From: Octopus vulgaris
Taxonomy: Eukaryota
Assembly (NCBI GenBank): GCA_951406725.2
Contig: OX597817.1
Coordinates: 137,392,001 to 137,456,000, forward strand
DNA length: 64,000 nt
Reading direction: 5' to 3'
The position numbers and the translations under genes are program-made. Below the pieces are notes generated by a model. The model made no database searches and was not told the DNA's origin. It was given only the letters and a program-made list of their open reading frames with translations. Below, in pieces: positions 2,721-43,639 of the stretch. Each line of letters starts with the position of its first letter. The stretch's first letter is position 1.

Positions 2721-3058
2721 GGGCCAAAAGTAGCCAGAGACAAAACAGCCTAAAATCTCTCCAATCTGAACTTCCATAAAGCAGACTGGAAATCGATCCA
2801 AAAAGAGATCCTCAGACAGGACTGGCCGAAATGTCTCTCCACACCAGACATTGGCATGAAACTAGACTATTTCATGTCTGCTTTGCAAACCATATGCCAG
2901 AAATATGTCCCAGAGCACAAGGCCAACACAAAAAGGAACAAGATTCCAAAGGAGAGGAAGATACTCATGAGACGACGGATGAAGGTTGCAAATCGCTTCA
3001 ACCAACACTCTAAAAGTATGTAAGGTCCTGCATAAAAACAACACTGCAACAATCCTAT

Positions 3059-4270
3059 ATGAGGGAGGGAGCAGACAAAGAAGCCTGGGTTATAAGAAAC
3101 ATTAAGTCAAACTCAAAGGCTTTCTTTCATTATGCCAAAGAAACAGCCTCAGTACGCTGCAAAATAGGACCCCTTTTCCAAAAGGATGGCTCCCTCACAG
3201 ATAACCCAACCATTATCAGTGAGGTACCGAACGACCGGTTCAAAAGCTTCTTTACCACCCCGGAACACAGACAAGTGAACGAACCAGTAGATTTCTTCGC
3301 CGCCTCACCTATAACCAGCGAGGCAGTTACGATGGATTACATCGACATTGGTGAAGTAAATATATTACTAGCCATAGATGAGGTGGACGCAAACCCATCT
3401 GCTGGCTCTGATGGTTTCCCAGCAATCATCCTCAAATCATGTAAGCGTGCGCTGGCGAATCCACTGCAAATTCTCTTCCAGACCTTTCTTGCAAATGGCA
3501 GGCTGCTAAGCATGCTGAAGGACAGAATATGTCCAATCTATAAAGGGGGAAGGAGAGCAGTAGCCAAAATCTATAGGCCTATCTCTCTGACTTCACACAT
3601 TAGCAAAGTCATGGAATGGTTAGTCAGAGGGAAACTAATCGCGTTCCTTGAAGAAAATAACTTGCTGAGTGATACCCAGCATGGTTTTCAACCAGGTAGG
3701 AGCTGCCTGACCCAGCTCTTACAACATTATGACTGGGCGTTGAGGCAGTTACCCAACAATTCAAATGTGGACGTAATCTACCTTGATTTTGCAAAAGCTT
3801 TTGACAAGTTGGATCATGGTATGATATGTCACAAACTGTGTGATCTCAGCATAGCTGGAAAACTCGGAGAGTGGTTACATGACTTTCTGAAAGATAAGAG
3901 TCAAGCAGTAGTGGCTAATGGAGCCACATCAAAGAAAACACAAATAGTGAGTGGGGTTCCTCAGGGCACTGTCTTGGAACCAATGCTTTTCATAGTGGCC
4001 CTTTCATATGCCCTCAGTTGCCCGGATAGCCACCCGTGCAAGCTACACAGACGATATGTAAGTATCGCAGAAAATTCAAAACCCTAACGGTGTTGTACAC
4101 CTGCAGCAGGAGTTGGACTCAATTCACAGATGGGCTGAGGACAATAATATGCAGTTTAATGCTGGAAAATCCCAAGCCCTGCTCTACCAGCGCCCAAAGC
4201 TGAGAGTAAATCTTACAGGGTACACTGGCCCACAAGAGATTACAATCCCAGAACCTAAATCAGACCTGGG
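3059..4270 (+). pseudogene. Reverse transcriptase domain of LINE ORF2 (frameshifted)
   Basis: YRPISLTSHISKVME, QHGFQPGRSCLTQLL, YLDFAKAFDK and SGVPQGTVL. After a frameshift come the catalytic YTDD (4044-4055) and LQQELDSIHRWAEDNNMQFNAGK. Confidence 0.95.
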
Positions 4271-4514
4271 TATATGCATATGAAATTTTGAATTTAGTTC
4301 ACGGAGCCCCAGTACTACTTTTGCGGACCACAGGTTGGGAACCACTGTTTTAGACGATGTGTGCTCATCACACAGAATTCATTGAGACTCTTCAGTCTTT
4401 CGATCTTAGCGTATCTCTTCGTTCAAAGCCATCCTCAATTCACGCTCGAATTTGTGAGAACGTATCGACGAATGAATGGTTACGTTATTGTTTTGGTTCC
4501 TCGCAACGGGCAAG

Positions 4515-4642
4515 GGTACGTCGCTTAGTGGTTGTGGTATTCGGCTCATGATCGTAGCGTTGTGAGTTCGTTGTATTCTTGAGCAAGACACTTTATTTCA
4601 TGTTGTTCCAATCCACTCAGCTGGCAAAAATGAATTGTACCT
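4515..4642 (+). mobile_element. tRNA-headed SINE, family D (5' part)
   Basis: A-box-like TCGCTTAGTGG and B-box-like GAGTTCG, then CTTGAGCAAGACACTT. Homologous to the reversed copy at 9000-9220. Confidence 0.65.
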
Positions 4643-4684
4643 TAAAAAAATTACTATTTTTAAAATCTCACAGCGTGAGATATT

Positions 4685-4865
4685 CAGCAACTATACTTTG
4701 GAGTAAAGATTGTTTGCCAACATAACATGGCAGTCCTGGTTTAGGACTAATGTTGCTGTAATTTAGCCCCAGGAAACATCGTCTCCAGCTGGCTATACGA
4801 CACAATTTGTGTCCTTATATCCTTATATTTTCGAACAAGGGAATCTAGCACCCCTTGTTCTGTCA
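4685..4865 (+). other. Multi-hairpin structured motif, copy 1 (identity unknown)
   Basis: Consecutive stems TGCCA/TGGCA, GTCCT/AGGAC, TAGCC/GGCTA with inner GGAAAC/GTCTCC, GACACA/TGTGTC and GAACAAGGG/CCCTTGTTC. Homologous to 41292-41447 (- strand). Confidence 0.7.
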
Positions 4866-20215: not shown

Positions 20216-21388
20216 TACTCATTTTGCCCCACTGCTTGGAATTTTATTTTAATTCTCTCGCAGGAAGGCCTATGGATTAGTGTTCTGTTATGCCTTCGAA
20301 ACATGCCTGACACCTCTAGCGACAGCTGATGACGGGGGTTTTGTCCTTGTGTAGCTCGTCCTGTATTTGTTTTTCGTTTTCTTGTTTTTCGTTTTCCGTT
20401 TTCTTGTTTTTTGTTTTTTGGCTTTTTCCGTTTCTACGTCTTATTGTGATGTCCTGTACTCCCGTATAATTATTTATATATGCATGTATATATACATGTA
20501 GATGTAGGTACGTACATATATGTTTGTATGTATGCATATATTTTTATTTATCTCCTTATTGTCTGACAGCGCCCCGCATCAGGTTCGTTCCGATTCGTCG
20601 TTTCGATCCACTTCTTGGTTCCCTTTTTTTATATTTATATTATTATATTGAAGATGCGGTACTCTCTCCCTTTGCTTTAACCTCTTCAATCTTTCTCCCT
20701 CCCACTCCTCCTCTCTCTTCGCCGCGTGTCTCCCTCCTCCTTCCCTCTTCCTTGCCTATAAAACAAAATTCCTTTACACGTGGTTCCCACTATTGAAAAG
20801 ACTGCCTCCACGCGCTGCTACTACACTTTCGTCCATGCCAGCAAAAGGCTTCTTCGTTCGTCCCCTTGTGTGGTTGATTTCCTGTATAGTATTCTTGTTA
20901 TTTTCTCGTTTTGTAACTAATTGTACTTTTTGTACATGTATTTTTATTTTTGCAGTTTTATCGTTTGTCTATGCCAGAAAAAAGGCTTTTTCGTTCGTCC
21001 TCTTGTGTTTGTTTTTGTACATGTATTTTAATTTTGCAGTCTTATTGTTACGTCTTGTTTGTGTTCGTACTCATTTTGCCCCGTTGCTTGGAATTTTATT
21101 TTAATTCTCTCGCAGGAAGGCCTATTGGATTAGTGTTCTGTTATGCCTTCGAAACATGCCTGACTCCTCTAGCGACAGCTGATGACGGGGGTTTTGTCCT
21201 TGTGTAGCTCGTCCTGTATTTGTTTTTCGTTTTCTTGTTTTTCGTTTTCCGTTTTCTTGTTTTTTGTTTTTTGGCTTTTTCCGTTTCTACGTCTTATTGT
21301 GATGTCCTGTACTCCCGTATAATTATTTATATATGCATGTATATATACATGTAGATGTAGGTACGTACATATATGTTTGTATGTATGC

Positions 21389-21404
<16 letters not shown>
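20216..21404 (+). mobile_element. Non-autonomous Penelope-like partial-tandem element with direct repeats of about 336 bp
   Basis: 20216-20551 is almost identical to 21068-21404 (offset 852-853; the ORFs 20316..20537 and 21169..21390 are identical). No TG..CA ends or TSD seen; (TA)n on both sides; each repeat carries CGAAACATG and CTGATGA. Confidence 0.75.
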
Positions 21405-41106: not shown

Positions 41107-41291
41107 GTGTGTGTGTGTATACACATATAATATCATACATATATTATAAACTTGAATGCAGAATAATACATCCCTCCAAATTTATTTACTAACGTGCTCA
41201 TAGAATGCATTCACTTTAAATCTCAGCCGAACACGTGTTTTTGCTTCACGTGCTTTTGCCCTTTATGTCTGTATGAGCATATCTGCAGATG

Positions 41292-41447
41292 CCTGACCAG
41301 CAAGGGGAAGCGGCTGACCTCCCCTGTTCGAAGGTTACAATGGACACAGTTTCGTGTGTCATATAGCTAGCTAGAGGCGATGGCCTCTTGGAGCTAATCA
41401 ACAGCAGCTTTCGTCCTATATTTATGGACTGCCATATTAACTTGGCG
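41292..41447 (-). other. Multi-hairpin structured motif, copy 2
   Basis: Minus strand stems GCCA/TGGC, GTCC/GGAC, TAGCT/AGCTA with inner AGAGGC/GCCTCT, GACACA/TGTGTC and AGGGGA/TCCCCT; colinear with 4715-4865. Confidence 0.7.
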
Positions 41448-41482
41448 ATAACTATTAATATATATGTATGACTGTACGTACG

Positions 41483-43597: not shown

Positions 43598-43639
43598 GTG
43601 GTACGATCGTTTCATGCTAGCATGAAACGATCGTACCAC
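43598..43639. repeat. Perfect 42-bp palindrome
   Basis: GTGGTACGATCGTTTCATGCTAGCATGAAACGATCGTACCAC equals its own reverse complement. Confidence 0.97.

Follow-up and report, generated by a model that had tools for sequence, protein, structure and literature searches.

A covarying RNA fold in hammerhead-bearing, PLE-type elements of the Octopus vulgaris genome

Two truncated copies in the window

The window, a stretch of 64,000 nt from Octopus vulgaris, holds two copies of a hairpin-rich motif (Table 1). A sequence-only reading had described them as distant homologues sharing five hairpins. Both copies were located where that reading had placed them, and the two align at 72% over 116 nt (E 8e-10). 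A family model returned exactly two matches within the window, at 150 and 96 bits, with the next best at 13. Hairpins H1 to H4 and the three double compensatory changes described in H3 can be read directly in both sequences, and the real folds beat shuffled sequences for both copies (z -2.9 and -2.4). The strand, in contrast, is the reverse of the one first noted, as the family's hammerhead, and hence the likely RNA, lies on the reverse complement.

Table 1. Positions of the features discussed, in window coordinates unless a locus handle precedes them.
Feature	Position	Strand	Remark
Copy 1	4647..4854	-	Subfamily A member (unit 350-352 nt), 5′-truncated; H5 to outer 3′ end; hammerhead lost
Short fold-back at copy 1 truncation point	4855..4860		Lengthens H5 in copy 1 only
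Copy 1 H5, family form	4839..4854	-	G-U pairs on - strand
Copy 1 H4	4799..4813	-	
Copy 1 H3	4765..4794	-	Outer stem, conserved internal loop, inner stem, GAUG-type loop
Copy 1 four-way junction	4685..4758	-	P0 closes round H2, H1, H6
Copy 1 P0 closing stem	4752-4758 with 4685-4691	-	
Copy 1 H2	4733-4747	-	
Copy 1 H1	4715-4732	-	
Copy 1 H6	4694-4705	-	Inner 3′ end of insertions falls here
Copy 1 H7, final hairpin	4665..4681	-	Outer 3′ end ~7-25 nt further, by subfamily
Copy 2	41278..41461	+	Subfamily E member (unit 361 nt)
Copy 2 H5	41304-41324	+	
Copy 2 H4	41343-41360	+	
Copy 2 H3	41365-41395	+	
Copy 2 P0	41402-41408	+	5′ strand only
Copy 2 H2	41413-41429	+	
Copy 2 H1	41430-41447	+	
Inverted scrap, 12 nt	41255..41266	-	Resembles family hammerhead core/stem II; match by eye only
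Complete young PLE	L138:430-5670 (G000:C16:20834500-20841500)		~450-nt terminal repeats; U3-A8 hammerhead like that of subfamily E
RT + GIY-YIG frame of this PLE, 781 aa	L138:2245-4590		Separate 359-aa frame upstream

The differences between the two copies are explained by truncation together with two insertion start sites. P0 is retained in copy 1, whose end lies at the outer site, whereas copy 2 lacks the 3′ strand of P0 because its insertion stops earlier, at the inner 3′ end, where it continues into a TA microsatellite. Family similarity in copy 1 ends at position 4854, and its long H5 results from the fold-back at the truncation point; of the H5 first described, the family stem of 4-6 bp, GGG(A/G)/UCCC, stands, and the 9-bp version of copy 1 is not family sequence. 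The hammerhead motif is absent from both truncated copies. Copy 2 starts 6 nt ahead of the predicted hammerhead cut (41283/41284), and its GGAC-GAAA, once likened to hammerhead stem II, is an antisense coincidence, the true hammerhead lying upstream on the other strand. The scrap beside copy 2 is likely the remnant of a 5′ inversion.

Several other repeats lie in the window. The 3′ end of copy 1 adjoins the A-rich tail of a SINE-looking repeat (4490-4645), presumably a tRNA-derived SINE, and a decayed LINE reverse transcriptase frame occupies 3014-4084. A perfect 42-bp palindrome lies within a SINE-like repeat at 43598-43639. Two direct repeats of 337 bp (20216-20551 and 21068-21404), 98.8% identical and ~850 bp apart, end in TA runs and contain CTGATGA and GAAACATG in an order that does not match the hammerhead pattern; they may be terminal repeats belonging to a different small element.

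The parent unit and its conserved helices

Rather than the two copies first seen, the genome (2.8 Gb in 227 contigs) carries thousands. First-look searches gave 3,468 candidates with copy 1 as query and 2,731 with copy 2, the best matches to the two window copies being 89-98% identical, and the combined H2 and H1 pattern has 2,832 exact genome matches compared with 0 for a reversed control. The parent, which the earlier reading could not assign, is a hammerhead-bearing, PLE-type non-autonomous element. Its non-coding unit has a period of 350-352 nt in subfamily A and 361 nt in subfamily E, within the ~170-400 nt by which non-LTR retrozymes are recognized, and is self-closing in 7/7 subfamilies, with the 3′ end followed by the unit's own 5′ part. 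Two further retrozyme traits are present, namely a type I hammerhead motif within the unit and head-to-tail repeats with at least two hammerheads, which were seen at L143 (~3 turns), L141/L025, L046 and L196 and make up a minority of insertions.

The minimal type I hammerhead stands immediately upstream of H5. A strict pattern matched it at 11 of 30 loci in subfamily A and at 17 of 30 in subfamily E, and the pattern was also found in subfamilies B, C, D, F and G. Stem I and its extension covary, with 13 of 16 pairs double-changed among 30 copies from five subfamilies, most subfamilies have a short palindrome as stem III, and in most the closing pair of stem II is non-canonical. Subfamily E has the U3-A8 core variant, which, like the short palindromic stem III, is a feature of PLE hammerheads (PMC4209133). 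These cleave poorly, probably as dimers, according to the same source. In tandem copies (e.g., L143, L245, L276 and L185), an extra hairpin directly follows the outer 3′ end, reading AGTGAC/GTCACT in A, B, C and F, altered yet paired in E, and less clear in D and G. After it, in most subfamilies, comes a TATA-like run ~50 nt ahead of the hammerhead, and the two could be a promoter or belong to the template signal.

Database models assign the motif to no described family. At gathering score Rfam gave 0 matches across the whole window, and at E<=1 on six loci its hammerhead models gave a single sub-threshold hit (HH9, 22.7 bits vs 52); the remaining matches on these loci were microsatellite or inverted-arm artefacts. 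The initial description of the junction as cloverleaf-like and yet not a tRNA is borne out, as ARAGORN called 0 genes in 8 loci and Rfam gave no match, and a tRNA or tRNA-derived SINE identity was rejected on the same grounds.

Thirty A loci were selected by the 5′ part of the unit. What precedes that part is the 3′ end of the unit itself, an inverted arm or unique flank, and in no case a shared reading frame. PLE coding sequence occurs near 3 of 257 motif loci, in two places, and is not joined in register. Both observations weigh against the units being pLTRs of an autonomous PLE, with the motif serving as a cis-signal of that PLE or as the beginning of its reading frame. This remains a very unlikely origin, even though PLE hammerheads in animal genomes are mostly solitary truncated copies (PMC4209133) and Xenopus retrozymes match pLTRs (bioRxiv 10.64898/2026.07.22.740005).

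On the hammerhead strand, the helices follow the order H5, H4, H3, a four-way junction in which P0 closes round H2, H1 and H6, and H7. Clustering of 151 copies that cover the hammerhead through H1 gave five subfamilies 21-44% apart and three singletons, and a covariance-model search added two more, for seven in total (A-G). Among the seven, both partners have changed in 20 of 45 pairs, although the subfamilies are related and few independent events stand behind the double-change counts. The 307 subfamily-majority cells comprise 293 Watson-Crick pairs, 9 G-U, 2 A-C and 3 others. For these counts the helix registers were set by hand on a single natural copy of each subfamily, the most frequent letter in a column served as yardstick, and G was omitted for H7. 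Double changes affect 6 of 10 pairs in H3 and 4 of 7 in P0, and the latter indicates that the cloverleaf, first thought special to copy 1, is a feature of the family, conserved in all seven subfamilies. H6 is weak in subfamily E and H7 in subfamily F.

An unadjusted alignment of 29 copies was compared with shuffled alignments. The number of double-changed pairs was not above chance (16 vs 13.2, reached in 63/500 shuffles); the number of double-change cells was 75 vs 28 (0/500), the covariation score was likewise beyond the shuffles (0/500), and slid controls scored far lower. With RNAalifold, P0 and segments of H4 and H1 emerged, and H3, H6 and H7 did not. Taken across the seven subfamilies, the covariation supports a fold that is conserved at the RNA level.

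Folding energy fails to choose the strand, an E copy giving z -4.2 antisense vs -1.1 sense; our assignment rests on the hammerhead core, the polarity of truncation and the excess of G-U over A-C. These considerations bear on whether the five-hairpin region is instead a new ribozyme, or acts as single-stranded DNA or antisense RNA on the strand first noted. The lack of an Rfam match, the invariance of some loop nucleotides and antisense folding that is equal or better in E all speak for such an explanation, and yet we regard it as extremely unlikely. The unit already carries a hammerhead, on the other strand, where G-U exceeds A-C by 9 to 2; truncation places the fixed ends at the 3′ side of the hammerhead strand; and most loops differ freely in length. 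No feature of the five-hairpin part suggests catalysis, which the sequence-only reading had entertained. Its proposals of selection on RNA structure within a mobile element, and of a cis-acting retroelement signal, are supported by the seven-subfamily covariation and by the insertion footprint.

Insertion ends, RNA reads and candidate helper elements

In every subfamily, the 5′ ends of insertions are scattered and the 3′ ends fall into two zones ~50 nt apart, an inner zone within H6 and an outer zone beyond H7. In the query-selected sets used for end mapping, the 3′ pile-ups hold 52 and 70 of 162 A insertions and 33 and 37 of 90 E insertions, and the inner end remains in H6 across all seven subfamilies. 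Among A insertions picked by pattern, 19 of 23 are two-armed, with an inverted second arm, and an inner end is paired with an outer end in 17 of these 19. Direct repeats of at least 10 bp (10-16 bp) accompany 14 of the 19 compared with 10 of 342 cross-locus controls. For A insertions picked by BLAST the corresponding counts are 26 of 42 and 56 of 1,722, and for E insertions 5 of 19 and 21 of 342, several other E insertions lying within microsatellites. The 5′ truncation, inverted arm, optional tail and target duplication make up a footprint of the PLE type, whose signature is the inverted arm together with a tail at a single end (PMC8557442).

Both window copies are 5′-truncated members of ~350-360-nt hammerhead units. 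We consider it likely that such units are copied by a PLE protein and that the hairpins act as an RNA handle determining the starting points of reverse transcription.

In two raw RNA runs, unit A accounts for 1,932 reads out of 12.9 million and 1,605 out of 12.0 million. The mate directions of these reads are alike, 60-64% continue into unlike flanks, and the depth is 3′-heavy, resembling the genomic copy depth seen in contig sets and not an even circle. The discrete ends that the sequence-only reading had proposed to look for did not appear on unit A in these two runs. Reads wrapping from the 3′ end to the 5′ part number 11 per run, in libraries not designed for circles, and the wrap is also present in contigs and genome. 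This pattern fits read-through of embedded copies and is compatible with the presence as well as the absence of a circle. At L143:1851-2198 (runs X23 and X24), A>G differences are numerous and T>C differences fewer, both at 20-35% of reads. In the deep contig set X15, which carries another organism label and no recorded type, they hardly occur; they are likely due to A-to-I editing of inverted arms.

The RNA depth also bears on a different role for the fold within the same element class, in which it was selected for life as a small circular RNA (stability, ligation and RNA-to-RNA copying) and the start sites are set by local sequence that merely lies near it. Animal retrozyme circles are highly self-paired (PMC7229834), covarying helices occur away from the start sites (hammerhead stem I and the hairpin after the outer end), and autonomous PLE ends in this genome lack the fold. 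We nevertheless judge this role unlikely, as the fold consists of short local hairpins in series with one junction and is not a rod, the inner end is kept in H6 in all seven subfamilies, and the depth follows genomic copies.

As to a helper for the favored PLE-copied handle, the genome has many GIY-YIG frames, including repeated open frames of 781 aa. One complete young PLE (Table 1) carries such a frame, and we take it to be Neptune-like by its CxxxxCxxC linker. This linker is stated as a Neptune criterion (PMC8557442). None of 53 GIY-YIG loci has the fold in its own terminal repeat (covariance model on 33 + 20 loci, sequence profile on 53), a result that speaks against the favored reading, and the fold is thus not simply a copied PLE end, for the PLEs sampled. 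Fold matches near GIY-YIG loci occur only at L109 (on the opposite strand), L252 (kilobases off) and L260 (~600 nt past the PLE end), and are read as separate insertions. BLASTN of the A and E units against three Neptune-like copies gave no match, and a contiguous RT + GIY-YIG frame joined to a unit was not found at the sampled loci. A second PLE family (L260:3790-3980, L261 and L269) has a terminal hammerhead with a CCGAAGA core variant.

Relation to known elements and a proposed mechanism

By sequence criteria, the octopus units belong to a known class of element, the non-autonomous PLE passenger of the retrozyme type. They resemble metazoan non-LTR retrozymes in their non-coding unit (350-360 nt; 350-390 nt in mussel) and type I hammerhead (PMC7229834), and in their tandem wrap and co-occurrence with PLEs (PMC7229834; bioRxiv 10.64898/2026.07.22.740005), and non-LTR retrozymes have been argued to derive from PLEs (bioRxiv 10.64898/2026.07.22.740005). 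In contrast to these retrozymes, the octopus units occur for the most part as scattered insertions shorter than a unit, bearing an inverted arm and a target duplication, and not as long arrays, their hammerhead is the minimal PLE type, and they are known here from sequence and not from circles. A shared covarying fold with fixed start sites is described for the octopus units only, relative to the consulted portions of the retrozyme papers.

In the Poseidon PLE of Anolis carolinensis, the hammerhead is closely followed by a region that binds the protein and by two RT start sites. Both starts are internal and fall within the required stretch of RNA; cutting and extension affect both strands of the target (PMC11167929). 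The octopus units are alike in the order of hammerhead, required RNA region and two RT starts, in a start-site spacing that gives an optional tail, and in AT-rich targets. The Poseidon region is the first 172 nt of an autonomous element's reading frame, whereas the octopus region is non-coding; the tail is 30-40 nt in Poseidon and ~50 nt in the octopus units, whose structure is in addition backed by covariation (PMC11167929 for Poseidon). Other PLEs share the short palindromic stem III and U3-A8 variant of their minimal hammerheads (PMC4209133), as well as opposite-strand pairs 100-700 bp apart, an inverted truncated arm and a tail at one end (PMC4209133; PMC8557442). The octopus units differ from PLEs in that a coding element with their terminal sequence was not found among the sampled loci.

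In the mechanism we propose, H5-H7 together with the four-way junction of a tandem or circular transcript would form the binding site for the PLE protein, and the GIY-YIG endonuclease would make a staggered cut ~12-14 bp wide. Priming would take place in H6, the inner site, for one cut strand and beyond H7, the outer site, for the other, and the two cDNAs would be joined back to back, with long cDNAs running round the unit to yield partial tandems. The hammerhead is predicted to self-cleave, probably as a dimer through its palindromic stem III, and the RNA would circularize.

Cephalopod retrozymes or a fold of this kind did not appear in the literature searched, and the families may stand in Repbase or Dfam. 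Relative to that literature, and Repbase and Dfam aside, what is new is the covarying fold common to seven subfamilies and tied to two start sites. More tentatively, H3, P0, H1/H2/H6 and H7 may constitute a dedicated template-recognition module that evolved without copying the helper's ends and sets a PLE dimer at two defined positions, each cut DNA strand being primed on the same small, possibly circular, RNA; we hold this to be possible rather than probable.

PLE reverse transcriptases are telomerase's closest mobile relatives. If the module exists as proposed, it would be a protein-less counterpart of the template boundary of telomerase RNA, the first structure with covariation support for the RNA signal of a PLE reverse transcriptase, an enzyme related to telomerase, and a portable tag for cargo. 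On how these enzymes choose their RNA and internal start sites, one in vitro study has brought the search down to 172 nt following the hammerhead. The seven subfamilies are diverged natural templates that share a fold and have mapped starts. They are ready constructs for disrupt-and-rescue experiments and offer a means to test the proposed partnership between retrozymes and PLEs. For the octopus genome itself, the two-armed insertions, which number in the thousands, are built-in inverted repeats and a likely substrate for A-to-I editing.
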